DNA of 64,000 bases, from contig CAYTSW010000003.1 of assembly GCA_964440605.1 (NCBI GenBank), positions 5,421 to 69,420 on the forward strand, read 5' to 3'. Below, in pieces: positions 969-56,268 of this stretch; positions within the stretch are counted from its first letter, which is position 1, and each line of letters starts with the position of its first letter. This DNA comes from an uncultured Phycisphaeraceae bacterium. Lineage in GTDB: Bacteria; Planctomycetota; Phycisphaerae; Phycisphaerales; UBA1924. The translations under genes were made by a program, and so were the position numbers. Under the pieces are notes generated by a model. That model worked only from the letters and a program-made list of their open reading frames with translations. It was not told where the DNA came from and ran no database searches.

Positions 969-1532
969 ATGCCCGATCAGGTCCAGTCCGCGATTCGACT
1001 CATCGTCTTCAAGGCCGATGGCAGCAAGAAGACGCTCGGCTTGAAGGTCGGTCGGTACGTAGTGGGTCGGCACCACAACGCTTCGCTGCGGATCCCGCTG
1101 CCCTCGGTGTCGCGTCAGCACTGCGAGTTGATCTGCGAGCAGAGCACGCTGCGGGTGAAGGATCTGGGCTCGGCGAACGGGACGTACCGCAACAGCCAGC
1201 GGATTGAAGACGAGGCCGAGCTGCAAGCGGGCGACACGCTGGCGGTGGGGCCGGTGCAGATCGTCGTGCAGATCAACGGCGAGCCGGCGCAGGTGGATGC
1301 GCCGGCGGGCGGTGGGGGCGACGTCGACATGGAGGCGACGCCTCCCGCGGGCTCGCCGACGGTCGCGGATTCGAGCGACGACGACTCGGGGGCTTCGCAC
1401 GCGGACACCGACCTGGACGAGACGATCGCGCGCGAGACGGGCATGGGCAGCCTGCTCAAAGGCAACGCGGAAGACAGCAGCGTCTTCGATTTCGACTTCG
1501 ACTTCGAGGATGACGAGAACCCGAAACTGTGA
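969..1532 (+). CDS. FHA-domain protein with acidic C-terminal tail
   Basis: 187 aa. FHA-like core VGRHHNASLRIPLPSVSRQHCEL...VKDLGSANGTYRN...LQAGD. Divergent from hemW across an 80-bp spacer. Confidence 0.8.
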   Translation: MPDQVQSAIRLIVFKADGSKKTLGLKVGRYVVGRHHNASLRIPLPSVSRQHCELICEQSTLRVKDLGSANGTYRNSQRIEDEAELQAGDTLAVGPVQIVVQINGEPAQVDAPAGGGGDVDMEATPPAGSPTVADSSDDDSGASHADTDLDETIARETGMGSLLKGNAEDSSVFDFDFDFEDDENPKL

Positions 1533-1552
1533 ATGCGTGGCGCTCGCGCCGG

Positions 1553-1729
1553 TCAGGCGGCGTCGGGCTTGGCGGGTTGGGCCTTGGGCGCCGCCTTTTG
1601 CGGGACCATGATCTTGCTCCCGCAGTTGCGACAGCGGATAAGCCGCCCACGCGCCTCGACGGGGACCGCAAGGACGGCGCGGCACTTGAGGTTGGGACAC
1701 ATCATCCTGACGGCGTTCGCCTGATCCAT
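1553..1729 (-). CDS. Small zinc-ribbon protein (58 aa)
   Basis: ATG at 1727..1729 gives MDQANAVRMMCPNLKCRAVLAVPVEARGRLIRCRNCGSKIMVP... with two CxxC pairs. Confidence is moderate because the ORF is short. Confidence 0.45.
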   Translation of the reverse strand: MDQANAVRMMCPNLKCRAVLAVPVEARGRLIRCRNCGSKIMVPQKAAPKAQPAKPDAA

Positions 1730-1910
1730 GGCGGCTCCCGAGCGGGGTGGTGTGCGGAGCGGACAGCCTGACCGGACCGGGCTCCCGCCGCTATGCTCGC
1801 GTTGCATGTGGGTCATCGGAGCGCGAGGCCGCGTGCTTCACGCCGAGTCGCGGGCGCGTTGGTGGCCCGGCCGCACAATCCACCGCTCCACGGGCGTTTG
1901 CGTACCGCTT

Positions 1911-3335
1911 ATGTCAGACCTTCCCGCCGACCATGGATCATCCGAGCCCCGCCCGAGCGACCATCTGGCACGCCCGGCGCCCCGATTGACGGCCGCGATC
2001 ACAGGGCGCGGCGTCGCGGTGGTGGGTCTTCAGTGGGGCGACGAGGGTAAAGGCAAGGTGATCGACGCCATCGCCCCGCGCTTTCAGGCGGTGGTCCGAT
2101 ACAACGGCGGGGCCAACGCCGGGCACTCGATCGTCTTCGGGGGCAAGCGTCACTCGGTGCACCTGATCCCCTCGGGCGTCTTCAACAAGGGCTCGCGCCC
2201 GGTGATCGCCAACGGCGTGGTGATCGACCCGTTCACGCTCGTGCGCGAGATCGACGCGCTGGCGGGCGCGGGGGCGGACCTGACGCGCCTGTCGATCTCC
2301 GATCGCGCGCATCTGGTGATGCCCTACCACCAGGCGGAAGACGCCTCGCGCGAGGTGATGCTCGATGACCCGGCCAAGCAGGGGCCGAGCAAGCCCACGT
2401 CGGGCGCGATCGGGACGACGCGGCGCGGCATCGGGCCGGCGTACGCCGAGAAGGCGGCGCGATCGACGGCGATCCGCGCGGGCGACCTGCTCAGGACCGA
2501 GCTCCTGCGCGAGCGGCTGGAACTCGTGTGCGCGTTCAAGGCGGGCGGGAACACCATCGTCAACGCCCCGCCCGAAGCGCTGAACGCCGCGGAGCTCGCG
2601 CAGCGTCTCGGTGAGGTGGCGGGTCGACTCGGGCCTCAGCTCGACGACACGACGTACCTCCTGCACGACATGCTCCGGCGCGGCGAGCACGTGCTCTTCG
2701 AGGGGGCCAACGCGACGCTGCTGGACGTCGATCATGGCACGTTCCCCTTCGTGACCTCGTCGTCGACGACGGCGCTGGGCATCCCCGCGGGCACGGGCGT
2801 GCCGGGGTCGGCGATCAACGCGGTGATCGGCGTGGTCAAGGCGTACGGGACACGCGTGGGCGCCGGTCCCTTCCCGACGGAGCTGCACGACGACACCGGC
2901 GCGCGGATCCGCGAGCGGGGCAACGAGTTCGGCACGACCACCGGCCGCCCGCGACGCTGCGGCTGGCTCGACCTCGTCGCGGTGCGCTACGCCGCCATGG
3001 TCAACGGCGTCCACGCGCTGGCGATCATGCTGCTCGACGTGCTCGCGGGGTTTGACGAGCTCAAGGTGTGCACGGCCTACGAGCTGGGCGGCGTACGCAC
3101 CGACCGCTTCCCGCCCGACGCCGCGGATCTGTCCCGGGCCAAGCCGGTCTACGAGACGCTCGAAGGGTTCGCCGAAGAAGTCAGCGGTGCGCGCACGATG
3201 GACGACCTGCCGACGCCCGCGCGGGGGTATCTGGAGTTCATCGAGGCGTACGTCGGCGTGCCGATCCGGCTGGTGTCGGTGGGCGCCGATCGCGAGCAGA
3301 CGGTGGACGGGCTCGGGGAGCTGTTGCCGGGGTAA
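1911..3335 (+). CDS. purA: Adenylosuccinate synthetase
   Basis: P-loop QWGDEGKGKVID plus GIGPAY and TTGRPRRCGWLD motifs. I chose ATG 1911 (MSDLPADH...) over the ORF-track start at 1728, which adds an Arg-rich leader. Confidence 0.95.
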   Translation: MSDLPADHGSSEPRPSDHLARPAPRLTAAITGRGVAVVGLQWGDEGKGKVIDAIAPRFQAVVRYNGGANAGHSIVFGGKRHSVHLIPSGVFNKGSRPVIANGVVIDPFTLVREIDALAGAGADLTRLSISDRAHLVMPYHQAEDASREVMLDDPAKQGPSKPTSGAIGTTRRGIGPAYAEKAARSTAIRAGDLLRTELLRERLELVCAFKAGGNTIVNAPPEALNAAELAQRLGEVAGRLGPQLDDTTYLLHDMLRRGEHVLFEGANATLLDVDHGTFPFVTSSSTTALGIPAGTGVPGSAINAVIGVVKAYGTRVGAGPFPTELHDDTGARIRERGNEFGTTTGRPRRCGWLDLVAVRYAAMVNGVHALAIMLLDVLAGFDELKVCTAYELGGVRTDRFPPDAADLSRAKPVYETLEGFAEEVSGARTMDDLPTPARGYLEFIEAYVGVPIRLVSVGADREQTVDGLGELLPG

Positions 3336-3348
3336 GGGCGCGATCATC

Positions 3349-3467
3349 GTGCCACGGGTTGCTTGCAACCCGTGCTCCCCCGCGTGGCGCGGAGCGAGTG
3401 GTCCCGGCTGGTCGTAAAGCGGACGCTTGGGCGCGCGGGTTGCCGCTGCGCGGTCAACCCGTGGCAC
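3349..3467. repeat. REP-like pair of stem-loops sharing one stem sequence, between convergent genes
   Basis: Hairpin 1: CACGGGTTGC / GCAACCCGTG (3353..3374). Hairpin 2: CGGGTTG (3437..3443) / CAACCCG (3455..3461). Outer 13-nt inverted repeat: GTGCCACGGGTTG (3349..3361) / CAACCCGTGGCAC (3455..3467). Confidence 0.45.
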
Positions 3468-3479
3468 GTCGCTTTCGGT

Positions 3480-3944
3480 TCAGGGATTGTTGATCGCGGG
3501 TGGTTCGTGCAACTCGAAGACGAGGCGGTCGGTGTCGCCTCGGGTGAGGGTGAGTTTGTTGGCGGTGAGGCGGTAGCCATCGACGCGTTGGAGGGTTTGG
3601 ATGTAGCGGTCTTCGAACTGCCTGAGTTCGGGGGGGCCGGCCATGCGGGTGGTGCCGACGCCGCCGAGGCGGAAGCGGCCTTCGGTGAGGGCGGCGTTCT
3701 CGAGCGACGACGCGTAGCGGTTGACGCCGGCGAAGCCGCTGACGCGTCCGTCGGGGTCGATGGTGAGCGAGACGGGCTCGCGCGGGTCAGCGTTGGTGAT
3801 GGGCTGCCCGTCGATGGAGACGAGCTCCCAGTGGCCGGCGAGGCCGGTCTCCGGGGTGTACTCGGGCGAGCGATGGCGTTGGCAGGCGGTGAGGGTGATG
3901 AGGAGGGCGCAGGCGAGGAAGAGTCGGGCGGCGGCGGTGGTCAA
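3480..3944 (-). CDS. META-domain (HslJ-like) lipoprotein
   Basis: 154 aa. Signal peptide with lipobox LTAC, and a META/HslJ-like body (WELVSIDGQPI..., GFAGVNRY..., LTLTRGD...). The TTG start overlaps the upstream stop (TTGA at 3941..3944). Confidence 0.75.
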   Translation of the reverse strand: MTTAAARLFLACALLITLTACQRHRSPEYTPETGLAGHWELVSIDGQPITNADPREPVSLTIDPDGRVSGFAGVNRYASSLENAALTEGRFRLGGVGTTRMAGPPELRQFEDRYIQTLQRVDGYRLTANKLTLTRGDTDRLVFELHEPPAINNP

Positions 3945-6103
3945 CGGATGGCTCCCAGCTTGGCGAGGTCGTCCTTGGCGCGCTGCAGTCGCGTGGAGAC
4001 GTGCTTGTGCGCGCCGGGGTGCTTGTCGGGCTTGAAGACTTCCAGCGCGCTCTCGTAGTAGGCGACGGCTTCGGTCAGGTGGTCCTCACGGTCGCCGGGC
4101 AGCTTGCTCCAGGCCAGGCCGAGGTTGGCCTGGGTGCGGGCCCAGTCGACGGGCATCTGCTCGCGGGTGCGCACGGTCAGGGCGGCTTCGAAGGCCTCGA
4201 TGGCTTCGCGGACGTTCGTGCCGCGACCGGTGATGGGCAGGTGAAGGAGCGCCGAGCCGAGGTTGTTCTGCGTCGCGGCCCACTCGGCAGGGTGAGAGCC
4301 TCGGGTCCGCACCTGGAGGGCCGATCGGTAGCAGGCGATGGCCCGGCGCATGTTCCTTTCCCGCCCGTCGTCCTCGGCGGGGAGCAGGGCCCAGGCGTTG
4401 CCCAAGTTGCTCTGCGTGGCGCCCCACTCGCCCCGGCGATCGAGCTCGGACCAAACTTCGAGGGCGGACTGGTGACACGCGATGCCGCGCTCGACGTTCT
4501 GCTTGTGGTCGCCTCCCGGGAACTGGATCCACGCGTTGCCCAGGTTGTTCTGGAGCCGGGCCCAGTGGACGGCGTGGGCGTCGCGGGTGCGGATTTCGAG
4601 GGCGGCGGTGAAGCAGCGGATGGCCTGCTCGAGGGTGCGCATGCGGTCGGCTGTTGGCAGGCGTTCCCACGCGTGGCCCATCATGTTCTGCACGTTGGCC
4701 CAGCGTTCGGGGTGCTTGTCGCGTGTCCAGACGCGGGCGGTCTCGCGCAGGGACGCGATAGCGCGTTCGACGTTGGTGAAGCGGTCGCCCGTGGGCATCT
4801 CGATCCACGCCTGGGCGAGGTGGAGGCGCGACTCGGCCCACCAGTCGGCCTGCTGCGCCTGGTCGAAGATGTTGCCGGCCTGCTCGAAGCAGCGCACGGC
4901 TTCGTGCATGGCGTGGCTGCGGTCGGAGCCCCCGGTGAGCATCCACGACATGCCCAGCACGACGAGCGCCTTGCCGCGATCGGCGGAGCCGGCGGGTTGC
5001 TCGGAGACGGTGGTGTTGAGCAGGTCGAAGGCCTCGCGGAGGTTGTCGTCGCGGACGCCGCGCTCGCGGCGGAGGAGGGTCATGGCGACGTTCTGGCGCG
5101 TGCGTGGGTCGTCGCGGGTGGCGCGGGCGGTGCGGTAGTGGATCAGCGCCTCTTCGAAGCGGTGCTCGAAGTAGAAGCGGTCGCCCGTGATGGTCTCGCG
5201 TTCGAGCTTGTCGAGCTCGCGCAGGCAGGGCATGAGGCCTTCGGCGCGGACGAAGTCGCGTAAGGCAATGGCGGCGACGAGCCGGTCGAAGGGCGTTTCG
5301 CTCGTGCGCAGGCGCTTGGCGGCTGTGAGGACGTCTTCGGTGATGGCGGCGAGCATCGCGTCGCCCGGGCGCTTGTCGGCCAGCGCGCGGCGGACGAGGC
5401 CGAGATCGCCGGAGGCCGGGGCCTCGGCGCCCGGGGGCGCCATCACGGCCGCGTCGGACGCGGCGCGGGCGGGCTCGTCGCCCGCGGGCGGATCCTTCGC
5501 GGGAGCGCGCGTCTCGGAGCCGGCGGGCGGCTTCGGCGCGTCGGTCGTGGTCGATTGTCCACGGGCCCGCGTCGCGTCGGCGAAGGCGTCGGAAGCGGCG
5601 TCCTTGAGCAGCGGGACTTCGTCTTCGCCGTCGGCGCCGGAGAGCGGGCCGTCGAGCCACGCTTCGTAGTCGGCGAGTTGCTGGAGCAGGCCGTCGCCTC
5701 GTTCGGTGGCCCAGCGGACGAGATGGATGCGGAGCCACTGGTGTCGGCTGAGGGTGCCGTCGATGGCCATGGCCGAGACGGACATTGCCTGGCTCCAGGC
5801 GTGGGCCTTCTCGGTGGAAATCAGCGCGTGTCGGCGTCGTCCGGCGGCGAGGGCCTCGAGGGTGCGCCGCATGGTGCCGTAGCGCAGCACGAGCCGGGCG
5901 AGGAAGTTGCCCACGCGTTCGACGGTCTGGCGATCGGCGTGGCTCGCGACCGCGACCGTTTCAGCCACCAGCCCGACGAGCTCGGGCAGGATGGCCAGTC
6001 CGCCGGCGGGAACATCGGTCCTGCCCAAAGCGGTGCGGACCGCCCCGGAGCTGATGCTCCCCGTCGTCGCCACGAGGCGGGCGATCTGACGCGCTGATGC
6101 CAT
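3941..6103 (-). CDS. TPR-repeat protein (720 aa)
   Basis: The C-terminal two-thirds holds about 8 tandem ~42-aa units (W..TQNNLGNAW..LP.GDR..N...AI..Y..AL.V.TR...P..WA). Translationally coupled to the downstream META gene. Confidence 0.8.
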   Translation of the reverse strand: MASARQIARLVATTGSISSGAVRTALGRTDVPAGGLAILPELVGLVAETVAVASHADRQTVERVGNFLARLVLRYGTMRRTLEALAAGRRRHALISTEKAHAWSQAMSVSAMAIDGTLSRHQWLRIHLVRWATERGDGLLQQLADYEAWLDGPLSGADGEDEVPLLKDAASDAFADATRARGQSTTTDAPKPPAGSETRAPAKDPPAGDEPARAASDAAVMAPPGAEAPASGDLGLVRRALADKRPGDAMLAAITEDVLTAAKRLRTSETPFDRLVAAIALRDFVRAEGLMPCLRELDKLERETITGDRFYFEHRFEEALIHYRTARATRDDPRTRQNVAMTLLRRERGVRDDNLREAFDLLNTTVSEQPAGSADRGKALVVLGMSWMLTGGSDRSHAMHEAVRCFEQAGNIFDQAQQADWWAESRLHLAQAWIEMPTGDRFTNVERAIASLRETARVWTRDKHPERWANVQNMMGHAWERLPTADRMRTLEQAIRCFTAALEIRTRDAHAVHWARLQNNLGNAWIQFPGGDHKQNVERGIACHQSALEVWSELDRRGEWGATQSNLGNAWALLPAEDDGRERNMRRAIACYRSALQVRTRGSHPAEWAATQNNLGSALLHLPITGRGTNVREAIEAFEAALTVRTREQMPVDWARTQANLGLAWSKLPGDREDHLTEAVAYYESALEVFKPDKHPGAHKHVSTRLQRAKDDLAKLGAIR

Positions 6104-6174: not shown

Positions 6175-6202
6175 GGTCGGCCCGCCTGCGGGCGGGCCGA
6201 CC
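6175..6202 (-). terminator. Intrinsic-terminator-type hairpin downstream of the PEP-CTERM gene
   Basis: GGTCGGCCCGCC-TGCG-GGCGGGCCGACC, a perfect 12-bp stem, followed on the minus strand by TGTTTCGTC. Confidence 0.55.
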
Positions 6203-8889: not shown

Positions 8890-11130
8890 TCAGAAGCCCG
8901 CGGCGGTGAGCCAGGCGCTGGGCTTGGCGTCGAGCGCCGCCGCGACGCTCAGGAGGCTTTCGAGGCTGGGCAGGTGCGCCCCGCGCTCGATGCTCGAGAG
9001 TTGGCTGACGCTGACACGCGAGGCCTCGCTGAGTTCCTTGAGCGTCCAGCCGCGCTCGGTGCGGGCGAGGCGGATGCGTCGGCCGAGGGTCTGGCGGAGG
9101 CGGTCCTGGGGACGTTCGCCCAGGCCGAAGGTCTCGACGGCTTGGCGCAGGGTGGCGCGCAACTCGTCAACGCTGAAGGGCTTGGAGAGGTAGTCGAAGA
9201 CGTCCTGCTTGAAGGTGTTGCGCATCGTCTCGAGCGACGGGTAGCCGGTGACGACGACGACGCAGAGGTTCTCCCAGCGGGTGCGGATCTCGTCGAGCAC
9301 CTGGGCGCCGTCGTGCCGACCCATCTTCATGTCGAGCAGCACGACGTCGGGCAGGCGGGTTTCGTTGGCCTCGTAGAGCTCGTCCGGCGTCGCGACGACG
9401 CGGATCTCGTGTCCCTCGGCGGCGAGCACGCCCTCGATGTACTGGCGGAAGTCGGCATCGTCGTCGAGGGCGACGATCGACAGCGACGGAATGGCATCCA
9501 CCACCTGGTTCACGGGGCGTCGGGCTCCTGCTGGCGATCGACGCCGTTCGCGGATGGGTCCGCGTTGGTGCTGGCGTCGGTCTGAGGATGGTAGCCCTCG
9601 GCCTTGTCGCGGTTGCTCGCGTGGGGGGGGTCGGCGGGGGGGCCCCGGGGGGGGGGGGGGGGGGGGGGGGCCCTGGGCGGGGAGGAGGCCTTCGAACTCG
9701 GCGCCGGTGTCGGGCGGGGTGCGGTTGCGGGCGACGACGACGCCGCCGTGCTCGCGAACGATGCCCTCGGCGACCGCGAGGCCGAGCCCCGTGCCGTGCG
9801 AGTCCATGCGGGTGGAGGCGAAGGGCTCGAAGAGACGCGGGAGGACGGCGTGGGCGATGCCGGGGCCTGAGTCGCGGACGGTGAGGCCGGCCCATGATTC
9901 GCCGTCGCGTTCGACCCACTCGCTGGCGACTTCGAGCGCGCGGCCCACGCCGCTCTCGTCCATGGCGTCCACCGCATTGCGCAAGAGGTTGACGAAGAGC
10001 TGTGTCAGGCGGTCCGCGTCGCCGCGGATGGTCGAGCCGGGCGGGACGGCGTTGGTGAAGTCGACGTCGGCGTGCGAGCGGTCGATGCTCACGAGCGTCC
10101 ACGCTTCGTCGATGACGGCGCGGAGGTCGACCTCGTTCATCGCCGGCGGGCGGACGCGGGCGAAGTCGAGCAGGCTCTCGCTCAATCGTTCGAGCCGGCG
10201 GACGACGCGGAGCATCAGCGCCGCCTGCTGCGGGTCGAGCGAGCGCGGGTTCTCGTTGAGGCGTTCGACGCTGCCTTTGAGGACGGCCAGCGGGGTGTTG
10301 AGCTCGTGCGCGATGCCGGCGGACATGATGCCGAGGCTCGCCAGGCGGTCCTGATCCGCGAGGTTGCGCTTGGCGGTTTCGAGCAGGTGGTTCTTGCGTT
10401 TGAGCTCGGCGGCGATGCGCTCGACCTCGTCGAGCGCCGCGTTGAGCTGCGCCTCCTGGTCGCGGAGCTTCACGATTGATCGGTTGCGGCTGCGCATGAT
10501 CTCGGCGAGCTCGTCCGAGCCGATGTCGCGCTCGGGGATCAACTCGGCGTCGCGCAGACCGGCCTGGACGGCTTCGTCGGCGCGCCGGAGGCGCTCGATC
10601 GGGCCGTATACCTGCTTGGGCAGCACAAAGACCTCGAGCGTCGCGGCGATGAGCGCGTAGACGCTCAGCAGCGCGACGGTCAGCAGCAGATAGAGCTCGT
10701 TGACCGCGGCGCGGGCGCCCGTGCTGCTCACGCGGGCGACGACGAACCGGCCCGCGGAAGCGTCCCAGACGGCGGCGGTCGCGCCGCCTCGCGCGCCGGT
10801 GCGGATGAACGGTTCGCCCGCGGCGTCGCGGACCTGCTGGGCGAGGGCTTCGGGCAGGCCGACGCGCTCGGCATCGCCCTCGTTGAGGATCACGCCGTCG
10901 AGATCGGGTGCGCTGACGCCTGATCGGGCGAACTCCAGCGCGAGCAGGGCTTCGCGGCGTTCGGCCTCGCCGACGAGCTTGCCGACGGCGGGGCGCAGCG
11001 CGATGAGCAGGATCACCGCCAGCGAGAGGGAGAAGAGGGTGTGGAGGAGGACGAGCTTGCGCCGGATGCGCGAGGCGGCCTGCACCTTCATGCGCGAGCC
11101 GGTGCGTTGCAGGGTCTCGGCGACGGTCAT
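8890..11130 (-). CDS. Sensor histidine kinase joined in frame, via a poly-Pro linker encoded by a G24 tract, to a REC + XRE-type HTH response regulator (probably two genes: kinase ~9510..11130, regulator 8890..9513)
   Basis: Kinase features: 2 TM, H-box SAGIAHELNTPL, N-box LLRNAVDAM, G-boxes DSGPGI and GTGLGLAV. Regulator features: receiver domain (IVALDDD...VLLDMKMG...SKPF) and a Cro/C1-type HTH (WTLKELSEASRVSVSQLSSIERG). See the finding on the homopolymer. Confidence 0.8.
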   Translation of the reverse strand: MTVAETLQRTGSRMKVQAASRIRRKLVLLHTLFSLSLAVILLIALRPAVGKLVGEAERREALLALEFARSGVSAPDLDGVILNEGDAERVGLPEALAQQVRDAAGEPFIRTGARGGATAAVWDASAGRFVVARVSSTGARAAVNELYLLLTVALLSVYALIAATLEVFVLPKQVYGPIERLRRADEAVQAGLRDAELIPERDIGSDELAEIMRSRNRSIVKLRDQEAQLNAALDEVERIAAELKRKNHLLETAKRNLADQDRLASLGIMSAGIAHELNTPLAVLKGSVERLNENPRSLDPQQAALMLRVVRRLERLSESLLDFARVRPPAMNEVDLRAVIDEAWTLVSIDRSHADVDFTNAVPPGSTIRGDADRLTQLFVNLLRNAVDAMDESGVGRALEVASEWVERDGESWAGLTVRDSGPGIAHAVLPRLFEPFASTRMDSHGTGLGLAVAEGIVREHGGVVVARNRTPPDTGAEFEGLLPAQGPPPPPPPPGPPRRPPPREQPRQGRGLPSSDRRQHQRGPIRERRRSPAGARRPVNQVVDAIPSLSIVALDDDADFRQYIEGVLAAEGHEIRVVATPDELYEANETRLPDVVLLDMKMGRHDGAQVLDEIRTRWENLCVVVVTGYPSLETMRNTFKQDVFDYLSKPFSVDELRATLRQAVETFGLGERPQDRLRQTLGRRIRLARTERGWTLKELSEASRVSVSQLSSIERGAHLPSLESLLSVAAALDAKPSAWLTAAGF
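9647..9670. repeat. Homopolymer G24 (C24 on the coding strand) inside the kinase/regulator junction
   Basis: Counted directly: the g run covers 9647..9670, flanked by cccc on the left. GGGGGGG (9636..9642) and GGGGGGGG (9623..9630) tracts lie nearby. Confidence 0.97.
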
Positions 11131-19439: not shown

Positions 19440-22175
<2,736 letters not shown>

Positions 22176-22316: not shown

Positions 22317-22667
22317 ATGGCGATCGAGTGGTCGAAGGACATCGTGGTGTGCGACTTGGGCGAAGAGCCCGAACTCTCTGAGGAGTTGGGCGATCTGTTC
22401 CAGCGCCTGCAAGAGCAGGGCGGCGAGACGCCGAGCGTGGTGCTGAACCTCGCGGGGGTGTCGTACCTCAACTCGTCCAACCTCGCGCAGATGCTCCGCC
22501 TGCGCAAGACGCTTGTGGAGCGTGGCGGGCGGCTGAAGCTCGCGGCGGTCGCGGACCCGGTGTGGTCGATCATGCTGCTGACGGGGCTGGACAAGGTCTT
22601 TCAGTTCGCGCCGGACAAGGCGACGGCGATCGCGTCCTTGCAGCTCGAGCGTGAGAACCGGCAATAG
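22317..22667 (+). CDS. STAS-domain protein (anti-sigma-factor antagonist family)
   Basis: ATG 22317 (MAIEWSKDIVVCDL...) follows GGAGA. STAS-like VVLNLAGVSYLNSSNLAQMLRLRK...GGRLKLAAV. Confidence 0.8.
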   Translation: MAIEWSKDIVVCDLGEEPELSEELGDLFQRLQEQGGETPSVVLNLAGVSYLNSSNLAQMLRLRKTLVERGGRLKLAAVADPVWSIMLLTGLDKVFQFAPDKATAIASLQLERENRQ

Positions 22668-22937: not shown

Positions 22938-24860
22938 ATGAACATGACCCAGCGCCCCTTTGTCGGACGCTTCGCCACGGTCGCCGTTGGACTCGGCCTC
23001 GCCGTCGGTGTCGCCACCGCGGCGCCGCAGGATTTCAGCGATGACTTCAACGACGGCGACTTCACGCCCGACCGATTTCTGCTGGACACGGACGGGAACC
23101 TGGCGACGGGGGCGGATCAGGAGCCCACGCCGCTGTGGATGCCGATCTTTGGTTCGGACCGCAACCCGACGTCGTCGGTGATCCGGATCGACGAGAACCG
23201 CAAGACGGGGTACCTGCGCTTCCGCTCGCCGCGCAACCGCAACACGCACTCGTACGCGGGCTACATCGCCAACGGATGGAGCTTCGACCCGCTCGACCCG
23301 CTCGACTCGCCGCTGATCCCCGGCGGCTCGATCACCTTGCCCGAGGACGAGGCGCAGGCGATCGAGACGACCCCGCTCCGACTGATCGGGCTGCCCGACG
23401 ACTTCAGCTTCACGGTCGAGGCGAGCTTCGGCTTCAACGTGCTGCGCCCGGCCATCAACGATCCCGTCGGCGCGCTGACCGAGCGCGGCATGACGATCGC
23501 GCTGCTCGACACGGGGATGGTGGACATCGGGTACGGGAGTCTCAACGACGGGGCACTGGTCAACACGGGCGTGGAAGTCGCGATCGAGAATCTCCAGGGG
23601 CTGAACGCTCTTCAGTTCCGGCTGACGCGTTGGGAGGGCGGGGTCGCGGTGCAGGAGGACACAACGCTGTTCGATCCTTTCACCAGCTTCGAGGGCACGG
23701 TCGCGGTTTCGTATCAGAACAATCCGGTTGTCCAGGACCAGTATCTGGTGAGCTTCACCGATCGCTTCAACCGGGTCTCGGTGCTGACGATCGGCGGCGT
23801 GTACGGCGGACGCGATTCGGACGAAGGCGGCCCCATCGAGCAGATGGGCGCCTGCTGCTTCGACGATAACACCTGCGTTGACGCGGTGACCTCGTCGCAG
23901 TGCGAGTCGGCCGACGGCGACTTCCGCGGGGAGGACGCCGACTGCGATCAGGGCAACTGCACGCTGATGCCCGACGGCGACGGCGAAGACATCGGTGCCT
24001 GCTGCTTCGACGACACCAACGACTGTTTCGATGGTGCCGAGGAGCAGGAATGCGACGCCGCGGGCGGTGACTGGCGCGGCATTGGCTCGACGTGCGATAT
24101 GGGCAACTGCGTGCTCGAAGACATGATGGGTATGCCACTGCCCGAGGGCGCGTGCTGCCTCGACGACGACACCTGCGTCGAAGTCGGTGCGGTGGATTGC
24201 CTGATGATGAGCGGCATCTTTCAGGGCCAGGGCGTGGGCTGCGTCGGTGCGTGCCTCGGCGCGACTGAGATGGGTGCCTGCTGCATCCCGGACGAAGACT
24301 GCATAGAGGTCGAGGCCGACGAGTGCCTCGCCATGGGTGGTCAGTTCCAAGGCGCCGGCACGGGCTGCGTCGGTGCGTGTACCGGCGGGGCTGATGGCGG
24401 CGATGACGGCGTGATCGACACCGAGATGTTCATGAACGTCATTCAGCCCTCGCTGTTCATCGGTGTCTACTCGGAGCGTTGCACCCGCCCCATCCGCCCG
24501 CAGACCACCTTCTTCGACTCGCTCATCATGAACGAACTCACTTTCCAGCTCGACGGGAACCTGAACTTCGATCCGGACCCCGACTTCGATGGGGATGGCG
24601 ACGTCGATCGCTTCGACATGGCCGCGGCTCTGACCGCCTTCCCGCCCGTTCGAGACGAGTTGCTGCTGGCGATCCTGACCGATGCCGGTGGTCCCACGCC
24701 CGATCAGTTCATCCGCCCGCGTCAGTACAACCGAGCGGTGAACCGCTGGTACAAGCGCAACGTGATCCCCGCATTCGCGGGGCAGCGCAACCGCGCCGAG
24801 CGCCGGAATGACCGCCGCAAGCTCTTCGGCCTGCGTGAGCTTGTCTTCCCCGGTAGCTGA
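22938..24860 (+). CDS. Secreted protein with four tandem six-Cys modules and a dockerin-like C-terminal segment
   Basis: Signal peptide (FATVAVGLGLAVGVATAAP). Four GACC.(D)D..C........C...GG.F.G.G..C....C modules at about nt 23847..24380. DFDGDGDVDRFDMAAAL near the C-terminus. Start could be 22938 or 22944 (AGGAG upstream). Confidence 0.75.
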   Translation: MNMTQRPFVGRFATVAVGLGLAVGVATAAPQDFSDDFNDGDFTPDRFLLDTDGNLATGADQEPTPLWMPIFGSDRNPTSSVIRIDENRKTGYLRFRSPRNRNTHSYAGYIANGWSFDPLDPLDSPLIPGGSITLPEDEAQAIETTPLRLIGLPDDFSFTVEASFGFNVLRPAINDPVGALTERGMTIALLDTGMVDIGYGSLNDGALVNTGVEVAIENLQGLNALQFRLTRWEGGVAVQEDTTLFDPFTSFEGTVAVSYQNNPVVQDQYLVSFTDRFNRVSVLTIGGVYGGRDSDEGGPIEQMGACCFDDNTCVDAVTSSQCESADGDFRGEDADCDQGNCTLMPDGDGEDIGACCFDDTNDCFDGAEEQECDAAGGDWRGIGSTCDMGNCVLEDMMGMPLPEGACCLDDDTCVEVGAVDCLMMSGIFQGQGVGCVGACLGATEMGACCIPDEDCIEVEADECLAMGGQFQGAGTGCVGACTGGADGGDDGVIDTEMFMNVIQPSLFIGVYSERCTRPIRPQTTFFDSLIMNELTFQLDGNLNFDPDPDFDGDGDVDRFDMAAALTAFPPVRDELLLAILTDAGGPTPDQFIRPRQYNRAVNRWYKRNVIPAFAGQRNRAERRNDRRKLFGLRELVFPGS

Positions 24861-24886
24861 CCGCTCGCCCGCACGAGTGTTCCAAG

Positions 24887-24922
24887 CACGACAGCGCCCG
24901 CCGATCGGCGGGCGCTGTCGTG
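24887..24922. other. Terminator-type GC hairpin whose loop centre is the palindrome axis
   Basis: CACGACAGCGCCCGCC-GATC-GGCGGGCGCTGTCGTG, starting 27 nt after the stop codon at 24858..24860. Same style as other terminators in the window (GCCCGCC-NNNN-GGCGGGC). Confidence 0.6.
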
Positions 24923-24948
24923 CTTGGAACACTCGTGCGGGCGAGCGG

Positions 24949-26871
24949 TCAGCTACCGGGGAAGACAAGCTCACGCAGGCCGAAGAGCTTGCGGCGGTCA
25001 TTCCGGCGCTCGGCGCGGTTGCGCTGCCCCGCGAATGCGGGGATCACGTTGCGCTTGTACCAGCGGTTCACCGCTCGGTTGTACTGACGCGGGCGGATGA
25101 ACTGATCGGGCGTGGGACCACCGGCATCGGTCAGGATCGCCAGCAGCAACTCGTCTCGAACGGGCGGGAAGGCGGTCAGAGCCGCGGCCATGTCGAAGCG
25201 ATCGACGTCGCCATCCCCATCGAAGTCGGGGTCCGGATCGAAGTTCAGGTTCCCGTCGAGCTGGAAAGTGAGTTCGTTCATGATGAGCGAGTCGAAGAAG
25301 GTGGTCTGCGGGCGGATGGGGCGGGTGCAACGCTCCGAGTAGACACCGATGAACAGCGAGGGCTGAATGACGTTCATGAACATCTCGGTGTCGATCACGC
25401 CGTCATCGCCGCCATCAGCCCCGCCGGTACACGCACCGACGCAGCCCGTGCCGGCGCCTTGGAACTGACCACCCATGGCGAGGCACTCGTCGGCCTCGAC
25501 CTCTATGCAGTCTTCGTCCGGGATGCAGCAGGCACCCATCTCAGTCGCGCCGAGGCACGCACCGACGCAGCCCACGCCCTGGCCCTGAAAGATGCCGCTC
25601 ATCATCAGGCAATCCACCGCACCGACTTCGACGCAGGTGTCGTCGTCGAGGCAGCACGCGCCCTCGGGCAGTGGCATACCCATCATGTCTTCGAGCACGC
25701 AGTTGCCCATATCGCACGTCGAGCCAATGCCGCGCCAGTCACCGCCCGCGGCGTCGCATTCCTGCTCCTCGGCACCATCGAAACAGTCGTTGGTGTCGTC
25801 GAAGCAGCAGGCACCGATGTCTTCGCCGTCGCCGTCGGGCATCAGCGTGCAGTTGCCCTGATCGCAGTCGGCGTCCTCCCCGCGGAAGTCGCCGTCGGCC
25901 GACTCGCACTGCGACGAGGTCACCGCGTCAACGCAGGTGTTATCGTCGAAGCAGCAGGCGCCCATCTGCTCGATGGGGCCGCCTTCGTCCGAATCGCGTC
26001 CGCCGTACACGCCGCCGATCGTCAGCACCGAGACCCGGTTGAAGCGATCGGTGAAGCTCACCAGATACTGGTCCTGGACAACCGGATTGTTCTGATACGA
26101 AACCGCGACCGTGCCCTCGAAGCTGGTGAAAGGATCGAACAGCGTTGTGTCCTCCTGCACCGCGACCCCGCCCTCCCAACGCGTCAGCCGGAACTGAAGA
26201 GCGTTCAGCCCCTGGAGATTCTCGATCGCGACTTCCACGCCCGTGTTGACCAGTGCCCCGTCGTTGAGACTCCCGTACCCGATGTCCACCATCCCCGTGT
26301 CGAGCAGCGCGATCGTCATGCCGCGCTCGGTCAGCGCGCCGACGGGATCGTTGATGGCCGGGCGCAGCACGTTGAAGCCGAAGCTCGCCTCGACCGTGAA
26401 GCTGAAGTCGTCGGGCAGCCCGATCAGTCGGAGCGGGGTCGTCTCGATCGCCTGCGCCTCGTCCTCGGGCAAGGTGATCGAGCCGCCGGGGATCAGCGGC
26501 GAGTCGAGCGGGTCGAGCGGGTCGAAGCTCCATCCGTTGGCGATGTAGCCCGCGTACGAGTGCGTGTTGCGGTTGCGCGGCGAGCGGAAGCGCAGGTACC
26601 CCGTCTTGCGGTTCTCGTCGATCCGGATCACCGACGACGTCGGGTTGCGGTCCGAACCAAAGATCGGCATCCACAGCGGCGTGGGCTCCTGATCCGCCCC
26701 CGTCGCCAGGTTCCCGTCCGTGTCCAGCAGAAATCGGTCGGGCGTGAAGTCGCCGTCGTTGAAGTCATCGCTGAAATCCTGCGGCGCCGCGGTGGCGACA
26801 CCGACGGCGAGGCCGAGTCCAACGGCGACCGTGGCGAAGCGTCCGACAAAGGGGCGCTGGGTCATGTTCAT
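24949..26871 (-). CDS. Secreted six-Cys-module / dockerin-like protein (mirror copy)
   Basis: Mirror of 22938..24860; identical translation. Confidence 0.75.
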   Translation of the reverse strand: MNMTQRPFVGRFATVAVGLGLAVGVATAAPQDFSDDFNDGDFTPDRFLLDTDGNLATGADQEPTPLWMPIFGSDRNPTSSVIRIDENRKTGYLRFRSPRNRNTHSYAGYIANGWSFDPLDPLDSPLIPGGSITLPEDEAQAIETTPLRLIGLPDDFSFTVEASFGFNVLRPAINDPVGALTERGMTIALLDTGMVDIGYGSLNDGALVNTGVEVAIENLQGLNALQFRLTRWEGGVAVQEDTTLFDPFTSFEGTVAVSYQNNPVVQDQYLVSFTDRFNRVSVLTIGGVYGGRDSDEGGPIEQMGACCFDDNTCVDAVTSSQCESADGDFRGEDADCDQGNCTLMPDGDGEDIGACCFDDTNDCFDGAEEQECDAAGGDWRGIGSTCDMGNCVLEDMMGMPLPEGACCLDDDTCVEVGAVDCLMMSGIFQGQGVGCVGACLGATEMGACCIPDEDCIEVEADECLAMGGQFQGAGTGCVGACTGGADGGDDGVIDTEMFMNVIQPSLFIGVYSERCTRPIRPQTTFFDSLIMNELTFQLDGNLNFDPDPDFDGDGDVDRFDMAAALTAFPPVRDELLLAILTDAGGPTPDQFIRPRQYNRAVNRWYKRNVIPAFAGQRNRAERRNDRRKLFGLRELVFPGS

Positions 26872-38682: not shown

Positions 38683-40919
38683 CCGTCGCCGAGACCCTGC
38701 AACGCACCGGCTCGCGCATGAAGGTGCAGGCCGCCTCGCGCATCCGGCGCAAGCTCGTCCTCCTCCACACCCTCTTCTCCCTCTCGCTGGCGGTGATCCT
38801 GCTCATCGCGCTGCGCCCCGCCGTCGGCAAGCTCGTCGGCGAGGCCGAACGCCGCGAAGCCCTGCTCGCGCTGGAGTTCGCCCGATCAGGCGTCAGCGCA
38901 CCCGATCTCGACGGCGTGATCCTCAACGAGGGCGATGCCGAGCGCGTCGGCCTGCCCGAAGCCCTCGCCCAGCAGGTCCGCGACGCCGCGGGCGAACCGT
39001 TCATCCGCACCGGCGCGCGAGGCGGCGCGACCGCCGCCGTCTGGGACGCTTCCGCGGGCCGGTTCGTCGTCGCCCGCGTGAGCAGCACGGGCGCCCGCGC
39101 CGCGGTCAACGAGCTCTATCTGCTGCTGACCGTCGCGCTGCTGAGCGTCTACGCGCTCATCGCCGCGACGCTCGAGGTCTTTGTGCTGCCCAAGCAGGTA
39201 TACGGCCCGATCGAGCGCCTCCGGCGCGCCGACGAAGCCGTCCAGGCCGGTCTGCGCGACGCCGAGTTGATCCCCGAGCGCGACATCGGCTCGGACGAGC
39301 TCGCCGAGATCATGCGCAGCCGCAACCGATCAATCGTGAAGCTCCGCGACCAGGAGGCGCAGCTCAACGCGGCGCTCGACGAGGTCGAGCGCATCGCCGC
39401 CGAGCTCAAACGCAAGAACCACCTGCTCGAAACCGCCAAGCGCAACCTCGCGGATCAGGACCGCCTGGCGAGCCTCGGCATCATGTCCGCCGGCATCGCG
39501 CACGAGCTCAACACCCCGCTGGCCGTCCTCAAAGGCAGCGTCGAACGCCTCAACGAGAACCCGCGCTCGCTCGACCCGCAGCAGGCGGCGCTGATGCTCC
39601 GCGTCGTCCGCCGGCTCGAACGATTGAGCGAGAGCCTGCTCGACTTCGCCCGCGTCCGCCCGCCGGCGATGAACGAGGTCGACCTCCGCGCCGTCATCGA
39701 CGAAGCGTGGACGCTCGTGAGCATCGACCGCTCGCACGCCGACGTCGACTTCACCAACGCCGTCCCGCCCGGCTCGACCATCCGCGGCGACGCGGACCGC
39801 CTGACACAGCTCTTCGTCAACCTCTTGCGCAATGCGGTGGACGCCATGGACGAGAGCGGCGTGGGCCGCGCGCTCGAAGTCGCCAGCGAGTGGGTCGAAC
39901 GCGACGGCGAATCATGGGCCGGCCTCACCGTCCGCGACTCAGGCCCCGGCATCGCCCACGCCGTCCTCCCGCGTCTCTTCGAGCCCTTCGCCTCCACCCG
40001 CATGGACTCGCACGGCACGGGGCTCGGCCTCGCGGTCGCCGAGGGCATCGTTCGCGAGCACGGCGGCGTCGTCGTCGCCCGCAACCGCACCCCGCCCGAC
40101 ACCGGCGCCGAGTTCGAAGGCCTCCTCCCCGCCCAGGGCCCCCCCCCCCCCCCCCCCCCCCCGGGGCCCCCCCGCCGACCCCCCCCACGCGAGCAACCGC
40201 GACAAGGCCGAGGGCTACCATCCTCAGACCGACGCCAGCACCAACGCGGACCCATCCGCGAACGGCGTCGATCGCCAGCAGGAGCCCGACGCCCCGTGAA
40301 CCAGGTGGTGGATGCCATTCCGTCGCTGTCGATCGTCGCCCTCGACGACGATGCCGACTTCCGCCAGTACATCGAGGGCGTGCTCGCCGCCGAGGGACAC
40401 GAGATCCGCGTCGTCGCGACGCCGGACGAGCTCTACGAGGCCAACGAAACCCGCCTGCCCGACGTCGTGCTGCTCGACATGAAGATGGGTCGGCACGACG
40501 GCGCCCAGGTGCTCGACGAGATCCGCACCCGCTGGGAGAACCTCTGCGTCGTCGTCGTCACCGGCTACCCGTCGCTCGAGACGATGCGCAACACCTTCAA
40601 GCAGGACGTCTTCGACTACCTCTCCAAGCCCTTCAGCGTTGACGAGTTGCGCGCCACCCTGCGCCAAGCCGTCGAGACCTTCGGCCTGGGCGAACGTCCC
40701 CAGGACCGCCTCCGCCAGACCCTCGGCCGACGCATCCGCCTCGCCCGCACCGAGCGCGGCTGGACGCTCAAGGAACTCAGCGAGGCCTCGCGTGTCAGCG
40801 TCAGCCAACTCTCGAGCATCGAGCGCGGGGCGCACCTGCCCAGCCTCGAAAGCCTCCTGAGCGTCGCGGCGGCGCTCGACGCCAAGCCCAGCGCCTGGCT
40901 CACCGCCGCGGGCTTCTGA
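38679..40919 (+). CDS. Histidine kinase joined in frame through a C24 tract to a REC + XRE-HTH response regulator (mirror copy; probably kinase 38679..~40299 and regulator 40296..40919)
   Basis: Mirror of 8890..11130. The candidate regulator start GTG 40296 overlaps TGA 40297..40299 of the alternative kinase frame, with AGGAG at 40280..40284. Confidence 0.8.
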   Translation: MTVAETLQRTGSRMKVQAASRIRRKLVLLHTLFSLSLAVILLIALRPAVGKLVGEAERREALLALEFARSGVSAPDLDGVILNEGDAERVGLPEALAQQVRDAAGEPFIRTGARGGATAAVWDASAGRFVVARVSSTGARAAVNELYLLLTVALLSVYALIAATLEVFVLPKQVYGPIERLRRADEAVQAGLRDAELIPERDIGSDELAEIMRSRNRSIVKLRDQEAQLNAALDEVERIAAELKRKNHLLETAKRNLADQDRLASLGIMSAGIAHELNTPLAVLKGSVERLNENPRSLDPQQAALMLRVVRRLERLSESLLDFARVRPPAMNEVDLRAVIDEAWTLVSIDRSHADVDFTNAVPPGSTIRGDADRLTQLFVNLLRNAVDAMDESGVGRALEVASEWVERDGESWAGLTVRDSGPGIAHAVLPRLFEPFASTRMDSHGTGLGLAVAEGIVREHGGVVVARNRTPPDTGAEFEGLLPAQGPPPPPPPPGPPRRPPPREQPRQGRGLPSSDRRQHQRGPIRERRRSPAGARRPVNQVVDAIPSLSIVALDDDADFRQYIEGVLAAEGHEIRVVATPDELYEANETRLPDVVLLDMKMGRHDGAQVLDEIRTRWENLCVVVVTGYPSLETMRNTFKQDVFDYLSKPFSVDELRATLRQAVETFGLGERPQDRLRQTLGRRIRLARTERGWTLKELSEASRVSVSQLSSIERGAHLPSLESLLSVAAALDAKPSAWLTAAGF
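40139..40162. repeat. Homopolymer C24 (mirror of G24 at 9647..9670)
   Basis: Counted directly: the c run covers 40139..40162, followed by GGGG, then C7 (40167..40173) and C8 (40179..40186). Confidence 0.97.
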
Positions 40920-54841: not shown

Positions 54842-56268
54842 AGCTGGTACTCGACGACGCCGAAGCGTTCGGCACGGCTCACCTTGTCGCTCGCCCAGAG
54901 ACCCGCGAGCACGAACTCCACGCAGCTCGCCCGCACCGCGGCGTCGTCGCTCGCGTTCACCTCGAAGGCCTTGTCCCACACGGGCGGCACACGCTTGAGC
55001 ATCTCGGCGTAGTGGGCGCTGGGGAGCGTGTCGCCGACTTCGATGCGCGTGCCCTCGGCGAAGAGTTCGGCGATCTCAGCGAAGCCGTGCTCGCTGACGT
55101 ACTCCTCGAAGACGTTGCGGATGGCCTCGGCGAAGATCGCGTCGAGCGCTTGCCGCTCCGTGAGCTGGTGTGACGACATCAGGTCCAGCTCGAGCTTGCC
55201 CGCGGCCGAGGCGTGGAAGTGGGCGAGGTCGGAGATGCGCGGCACCGCGGGCGTCGGCTCGCGCTTGCTCGCGAGCTTGATGGCGCGCTGGCGGGCGCTG
55301 GCGACCATCGTGCGGTAGTTCGCGATCGAGAACCGCGCCGAGACGCCCGACTCCTGATCGACGTACGCGCTCGTGCGCGCCACGCGGGCCATCTCCTCGC
55401 ACACCTCGAGCATGAACCGCGGCACCTGCACGGGGAACTCGCCCCCGAGGTCGGTGTCGGACTCGCTCAGGATGATCTCGATGCCCAGGTCGCGCTCGCG
55501 CGGGTAGTGCGTGTGGATCGTCGTGCCGATGCGGTCCTTGAGCTGCGGGATGACCTTGCCCGAGCGGTTGTACGTGCTCGGGTTGGCCGAGAAGAGGATG
55601 AGCACATCGAGGTCAAACGAGACCGGGTAGCCGCGGATCTGGATGTCGCGCTCTTCCAGGGCGTTGAAGAGGCCGACCTGCACGAGTTCGTCGAGGTCGG
55701 GCAGTTCGTTCATCGCGAACATGCCGCGGTGCATGCGCGGCACAAGACCGAAGTGCAGCGCGTCCTCCGTCGACATGCTCACGCCCGAGGCGAGCTTGGC
55801 GGGGTCGATCTCGCCGATGATGTCGGCGAACTTCGTCCCCGGCGCCAGCCGCTCGGCATACCGCTTCTCGCGGCTCCACCAGGCGATGGGCAACTCCTCG
55901 GGCGAGCGGTGCCCGATGGCGGCCTGGCCCATCGATGTGATCGGGTGCGTCGGGTCTTCGTGCACCGGACAACCGGGCAGGTCGAGGTACGGCACCCACG
56001 GGTCGAGGAAGTCGCGCAGGCGGCGCATCAGGCGGCTCTTGGCCTGGCCTTTCTCGCCGAGGAAGAGCAGGTCGTGCCCCGCGAGGATGCCGTTGACGAG
56101 TTCGGGGATGACGGTGTCGTCGTAGCCGACGATGCCAGGGAAGAGCTCATCGCCGCGTTTGAGCGCCTCGACGAGGTTGTCGCGCAGTTCGTCTTTGATG
56201 GTTTTCGAGCGCCAACCGCTGGCCTGGAGAGCGGCGAGCGTGCGGATGTCGGGCGCGTGGTCGGTCAT
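54838..56268 (-). CDS. ChlI/BchI-like AAA+ ATPase (Mg-chelatase subunit I family; often auto-annotated as sigma-54-interacting)
   Basis: ATG 56268 ([10 protein letters not shown]...). Walker [12 protein letters not shown] and Walker B-like [11 protein letters not shown]. 476 aa. Coupled to the VWA gene. Confidence 0.85.

Follow-up and report, generated by a model that had tools for sequence, protein, structure and literature searches.

Inverted chimeric reads, among them MDA chimeras and strand-split or snap-back artefacts, form at short inverted repeats. Hairpin telomeres close the ends of linear replicons in Borrelia, phage N15 and Agrobacterium, and read-through of a closed end also yields a palindrome with a zero-nt spacer. 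On the side of the assembler, unsafe unitigs at coverage gaps reach the output of both SPAdes and MEGAHIT, and SPAdes pushes through palindromes and does not split them (PMC9528984). Contigs that are exactly mirrored palindromes have also been reported, and these were discarded as assembly artefacts (10.1101/2023.06.06.543983). Described here is a giant palindrome in a deposited metagenome-assembled genome (MAG) that can be compared with each of these systems. The reading favored, with a probability of about 0.85, is that of a misassembly that turned back at a real terminator hairpin, with the chromosome continuing past the hairpin into gcvT.

The window, i.e., the whole stretch of DNA that was analyzed (64,000 nt), represents bases 5421-69420 of contig C3, which has 71,918 nt. 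C3 is part of a MAG of 3.10 Mb (G000) that consists of 254 contigs, is 97.9% complete and has a genome GC content of 68%. A perfect inverted repeat is found in the window, with arms at 1-24904 and 24905-49808 and a 0-nt spacer. Over the full contig, bases 1-30324 of C3 are the exact reverse complement of bases 30325-60648, with 0 mismatches and again no spacer. The left arm is the redundant mirrored copy (window 1-24904) and extends 5,420 nt to the left of the window to reach base 1 of C3. The right arm (window 24905-55228) is contiguous with unique chromosome sequence, which runs 11.3 kb further, from window position 55229 through 64000 and on to base 71918 of C3, where the last 55 nt overlap contig C53. 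The sequence at 55228/55229 is in no way special, and the boundary falls there only because the other arm runs out where the contig begins. On its outside the palindrome is thus bounded by the end of a contig and has no sequence junction. Thus the structure has the marks of an artefact, i.e., identical arms, no spacer and one arm that terminates at the end of a contig.

The genes next to the axis on the plus strand of the left arm are gyrA, a chromosomal housekeeping gene (19440-22175), a gene for a 116 aa STAS-domain protein (22317-22667) and a gene for a secreted Cys-rich protein of 638 aa with no Pfam family (22944-24860). The mirror copy of the Cys-rich gene is on the minus strand at 24949-26865, and the second copy of gyrA is present because of the mirror only. 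The same is true of a G/C homopolymer-rich tract with approximately 24 G in a row, found at 9623-9682 and mirrored at 40127-40186. No gene is disrupted at the junction, as had been noted in the original prediction.

The palindrome shares properties with the palindromic contigs and unsafe unitigs previously described, which arise at imperfect coverage and in SPAdes-type graphs that pass palindromic edges (PMC9528984; 10.1101/2023.06.06.543983), and a second contig end of this MAG shows the overhang of (k-1)/2 nt. However it differs in its unusual size, 2 × 30.3 kb in a contig of 72 kb (84%) from a deposited MAG, and in a nucleation site that appears tied to a specific native terminator. With fold-back chimeric reads it has in common a junction at the center of a short inverted repeat and a continuation as its own reverse complement, but chimeric reads are single molecules of read length only, and the 30-kb arms here would represent the extension made by the assembler. 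In addition, the library is described as TruSeq and not MDA, which sets it apart from MDA chimeras.

The symmetry axis lies between window positions 24904 and 24905, within the GATC of a hairpin situated 3′ of the Cys-rich gene. As first drawn, the hairpin has 36 nt (24887-24922, plus strand) and consists of CACGACAGCGCCCGCC-GATC-GGCGGGCGCTGTCGTG, with a 16-bp stem and a GATC loop. It is indeed found at this position and begins 26 nt after the TGA of the Cys-rich gene (24858-24860). All 9 of the 9 bases beside the loop are G/C, and the motif is a GC-rich stem loop shortly past a stop codon, as in a terminator. The two hairpins that had been offered for comparison, at 6175 and 50403, both exist. 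It should be noted, however, that in a perfect palindrome with zero spacer any stretch that spans the axis folds as a hairpin, and the boundary of the 16-bp stem is therefore arbitrary; a 120-nt stretch centered on the axis folds into a 58-bp stem (-139.7 kcal/mol). Thus a native hairpin must be shown from sequences outside of C3. The axis region has no match of 19 nt or longer in any other contig of the MAG.

The closest relative, G018, displays on its contig C352 the gene order gyrA, STAS, a 530-aa orthologue of the Cys-rich protein, a hairpin, and then gcvT in convergent orientation. The G018 hairpin, GGGCGGCC-GCAT-GGCCGCCC, has an 8-bp stem and is followed by TTTTTCGTGCGC, with a run of five T after the stem. 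The order is the same in GCA_964576725.1, which has gyrA (77% identity), STAS, a 447-aa orthologue, a hairpin and convergent gcvT, and here the hairpin is ACAAGCGGACGCCC-CTC-GGGCGTCCGCTTGT with a 14-bp stem. A hairpin is thus present at the orthologous position in both relatives, and the proposal that a native hairpin nucleated the fold-back survives a comparison that could have contradicted it. The neighbors downstream of gyrA-STAS differ in G006, G001, G015, G022, G021 and G019, i.e., the gene order is not conserved in the family, and the neighborhood of gcvT also differs in a JGI relative. The assignment of gcvT as neighbor is therefore drawn from the two closest lineages, the only informative ones.

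The gcvT orthologue of this MAG opens contig C207 and is oriented as the gene order of the relatives requires. Bases 1-46 of C207 are adapter sequence, and genomic sequence is present from base 47, 4 nt after the gcvT stop codon. The start of C207 is a graph dead end extended by adapter read-through. A MEGAHIT contig from sister run ERR2407577, L024, is 99.9% identical to C207 and extends 44 nt past the gcvT stop codon. The tail of L024 ends in GCG plus TTTTT, as part of GCG+TTTTTCGTGCGC; its reverse complement starts with GCGTTTTTCGTGCGC, and in the window orientation the tail begins with GCGTTTTTCGTGCGCTC. The exact 12-mer TTTTTCGTGCGC is common to the L024 tail and the sequence directly 3′ of the G018 stem. 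From the opposite side, an independent contig with the STAS and Cys-rich genes (L015, run ERR2407578) is 99.86% identical and stops 6 nt before the axis, at window position 24898, with no fold-back.

Joined across the hairpin, these sequences give a composite intergenic region of approximately 95 nt, compared with 89 nt in G018. The order from the stop codon of the Cys-rich gene is 34 nt, (G)CGCCCGCC-GATC-GGCGGGCG(C), T5, CGTGCGC... and the gcvT stop codon. The composite folds into a core stem with an imperfect outer helix, GCACGA/TCGTGC. A global alignment to G018 shows 76 identities in 121 positions for the composite and 71 in 124 for the mirrored continuation, which is not discriminating alone; the informative part of the G018 comparison is the exact post-stem 12-mer. 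Synteny, the dead end of C207 and the L024 motif together show a true continuation that is not the mirrored sequence, and gcvT is concluded to be the probable true neighbor past the hairpin. Thus the unique continuation that the original prediction sought beyond the hairpin would be the convergent gcvT on C207, as seen through the synteny of the relatives and L024.

None of the contigs found crosses the hairpin, and exact scans of JGI metagenome contigs with the hairpin core and the gcvT-side flank gave no match. Contigs of the same population found by exact-protein look-up (L030 from JGI, L031 from ENA and L032 from Logan) do not extend beyond the Cys-rich gene, each of them ending within it or ahead of it. 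Three assemblies, that of the MAG and two sister-sample MEGAHIT assemblies from ENA, break 0-40 nt from the axis hairpin, i.e., at base 47 of C207 and where L015 and L024 terminate.

The L024 tail, the post-hairpin motif of G018 and the hairpin of GCA_964576725.1 point to a native terminator core, (G)CGCCCGCC-GATC-GGCGGGCG(C), at 24894-24915 on the plus strand. The native perfect stem is likely to be about 8-9 bp, formed by 24894/5-24902 with 24907-24914/5, and to be accompanied by an imperfect outer helix. Thus the terminator-type hairpin foreseen at the axis stands as a native element, but its 16-bp stem does not, the native perfect stem being shorter. After the core the real genome would read TTTTTCGTGCGC and not the mirrored TGTCGTGCTTGG. 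For the native loop and the right stem, the sequence evidence consists of the suspect contig C3 and 3 nt of L024. Depending on the last one or two pairs of the stem, the native perfect palindrome is put at 20 or 22 nt.

The hairpin is concluded to be a native Rho-independent terminator, a function that is putative. It resembles Rho-independent terminators between convergent genes in its GC-rich stem, 4-nt loop and T5 on the side attested by L024, in its position 26 nt past a stop codon, and in the hairpins at the same position in two relatives. It differs in that its T-run is overwritten by the mirror in C3. No T-run is present 3′ of the stem in C3, TTTTT follows GCG in L024, and no contig is continuous across the stem. 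A terminator scan does not flag the axis hairpin because mirrored sequence replaces the T-run in C3. The T-run on the opposite strand is poor, and thus the terminator may serve mainly the Cys-rich gene.

The contig ends of the MAG carry signatures of how it was assembled. Overlaps of exactly 55 nt are found in 85 pairs of contig ends, and none of 77, 99 or 127 nt, which shows a de Bruijn graph assembly with a final k of 55. Twenty-eight contig ends have the Illumina TruSeq adapter as their terminal 20-60 nt, mostly with the index GTGAAACG (e.g., C207 1-46, C1 92071-92118, C14, C18 and both ends of C206); thus the reads were not adapter-trimmed. Near-identical contigs are present in ENA project PRJEB25599, which covers microbial mats of Tebenquiche and La Brava. 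According to a preprint on the PRJEB25599 data, TruSeq libraries were sequenced as 2x300 MiSeq reads, and these were only quality-filtered and then assembled with metaSPAdes. An origin of the MAG from an assembly of the PRJEB25599 type fits these properties.

When all contigs were scanned for perfect palindromes with arms longer than 16 nt, only C3 and the right end of C34 were found. The latter (C34 22770-22823, L023/L028) is a terminal 54-nt perfect palindrome, whose axis is exactly 27 nt, or (55-1)/2, away from the contig end. This is the distance at which a k=55 unitig halts on meeting its own reverse complement, and C34 is thus a second fold-back in this de Bruijn assembly with a signature that depends on k. 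The axis is inside the gene of a secreted protein, which reads ...FFIVDID|DEEPRRG, and the homologue in G006 reads ...VIDIDGNDTFAVRAF (longer excerpt ...LFVIDIDGNDTFAVRAF). Homology to the G006 orthologue, which has GNDTFAV..., does not include the last 7 codons of the C34 gene (DEEPRRG). The native palindrome at this site probably spans no more than about 14 nt, a length at which the graph could not collapse, and a fold-back at such an in-gene palindrome supports the presence of real fold-back reads in the library.

The right ends of C13, C86, C88, C197 and C223 coincide with the outer edge of perfect 16-18-nt palindromes with zero spacer. Five such coincidences are observed and about 0.03 expected, based on 189 such palindromes in 3.1 Mb. 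These ends may be short fold-backs or breaks that follow inverted repeats.

The C3 palindrome probably arose as follows. The organism would be a Phycisphaerales-like bacterium of a salt-flat microbial mat, with the chromosomal order gyrA, STAS, Cys-rich gene, terminator and convergent gcvT. In its terminator, about 8-9 GC pairs would form the core stem around a GATC loop, with a T5 run toward gcvT. In a short-read assembly of low coverage no usable reads would bridge the approximately 40 nt between hairpin and gcvT, and the sole graph link at the hairpin would lead from a strand to its own reverse complement. As the true continuation is missing (C207 ends 40 nt short), the path extender would take the sole extension, its own reverse complement. 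It would then have written revcomp(A)+A+B, with 30.3 kb duplicated.

Two sources of the link are considered. One is fold-back chimeric reads, whereby a single-stranded end would snap back on the inverted repeat and be copied during library preparation. The other, which had not been considered earlier and is a possible source, is a collapse of the assembler graph at K=21 together with a coverage break; a 22-nt perfect palindrome would form a self-reverse-complementary edge at the K=21 stage of a multi-k assembler. SPAdes assembles at K=21, then at 33 and then at 55, with each stage receiving the contigs of the one before, thus a K=21 collapse could propagate to the final graph. Between the two sources, one or both of which may have acted, chimeric reads are slightly preferred.

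The graph source was assayed with a toy doubled de Bruijn graph, in which the left flank was combined with the right flank deduced for the native genome. With native sequence as the sole input, no fold-back occurs at K=33 or K=55. At K=21 a fold-back is found only if the native palindrome is 22 nt and the right flank is uncovered or tip-clipped. A purely in silico origin from native sequence at k=33 or k=55 was ruled out by the toy graph.

The in vitro chimera of the original prediction thus persists as one of two artefact routes, with the C34 fold-back in its favor, and the other origin then proposed, an in vivo palindrome primed by the hairpin, does not (see below). Counted against an artefact is that three assemblies break close to this modest hairpin, when equal or stronger hairpins in C3 were assembled normally, e.g., the 12-bp hairpin at window position 6175. 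Taking all artefact routes together, the palindrome is nevertheless very probably an artefact.

An artefact need not involve a native hairpin. The fold-back could have taken place at the micro-palindrome CGATCG, and the hairpin would then be only the appearance given by a mirrored, GC-rich left flank. Every axis of a perfect palindrome resembles a hairpin, the C34 fold-back does sit at a short palindrome within a gene, and the native right stem is without independent sequence, all of which agree with a fold-back of this kind. It is however unlikely, as both relatives that have the same gene order carry a terminator hairpin at the site. The end of L024, with GCG, T5 and the 12-mer that follows the stem in G018, also agrees with a right stem ...GGCGGGCG immediately in front of it, and the composite spacer of 95 nt is close to the 89 nt of G018.

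A real inverted duplication in part of the population should also be considered, whereby a broken or stalled end folds at the hairpin and primes synthesis in vivo, giving a palindrome of 60 kb or more. Events of this type start at precisely such a junction, and no gene is disrupted by it. SbcD (TIGR00619) has no match in the 97.9% complete G000, with matches in 13 of 14 control genomes, and cleavage of palindromes may therefore be weak; the argument that SbcCD destroys long palindromes is thus dropped from the case against a real one. Opposed to a duplication is the lack of an outer junction, since the arm ends only at the contig end. Fold-back and adapter artefacts are general in the assembly, as displayed by the k=55 and adapter signatures, and the conserved synteny indicates that the chromosome continues normally. 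In the sister samples, contigs end on reaching the hairpin or come toward it from the gcvT side, without any fold-back. Perfect palindromes of tens of kb without a spacer are also very unstable in bacteria. An in vivo duplication is accordingly viewed as improbable.

A related reading, rated slightly lower, is that a subpopulation carries a giant inverted duplication begun at the terminator between the Cys-rich gene and gcvT, or else a break there that is capped by a hairpin. If this were true, it would explain why three assemblies stop within a few bases of one modest hairpin, and the missing SbcD would let the structure persist.

Least probable is that a linear replicon ends at the axis in a covalently closed hairpin, a telomere or a hairpin-capped break with reads that round the tip; read-through of a closed end does give a perfect mirror with zero spacer, three assemblies end at or near the axis, and the MAG has exactly two fold-back ends, but the C34 end has no sequence relation to the axis and is situated in coding DNA, gcvT is on the far side of the hairpin in the relatives and in L024, and gyrA, at about 2.7 kb from the axis, belongs to a locus that is otherwise ordinary for a chromosome. 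A search for the ResT/TelK catalytic domain gave no match at E<=1 in the 97.9% complete genome. A hairpin telomere as in Borrelia, phage N15 or Agrobacterium was rejected, as no resolvase gene was found, the second end is not related and a chromosomal neighbor lies past the axis.

With the misassembly at a terminator as the preferred reading, the biology that remains is probably an ordinary intrinsic terminator between convergent genes, and the palindrome is almost certainly no real feature. The main value of the case is in quality control, since a deposited MAG that is 97.9% complete contains a 30.3 kb mirrored duplicate with a second gyrA. The mirror inflates genome size and copy-number counts, and a telomere, an amplification or a giant inverted repeat could mistakenly be read into it. 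It also illustrates how a finding of this kind can be settled without reads, by means of the k-mer signatures of contig ends, other fold-back ends, the gene order of relatives and contigs from sister samples.

L024 in addition joins two contigs of the MAG. Its positions 1-922 correspond to C110 (100%) and 1354-5346 to C207 (99.9%), thus C110 and C207 are neighbors that are about 430 nt apart.

Most of the relatives are without a close orthologue of the Cys-rich protein. The orthologues in the two syntenic relatives have 530 aa (L022 1490-3082) and 447 aa (L027 8907-10247). The 447-aa orthologue aligns to the N- and C-terminal parts of the protein and not across its four Cys-rich modules, which look as if they were inserted in this lineage.
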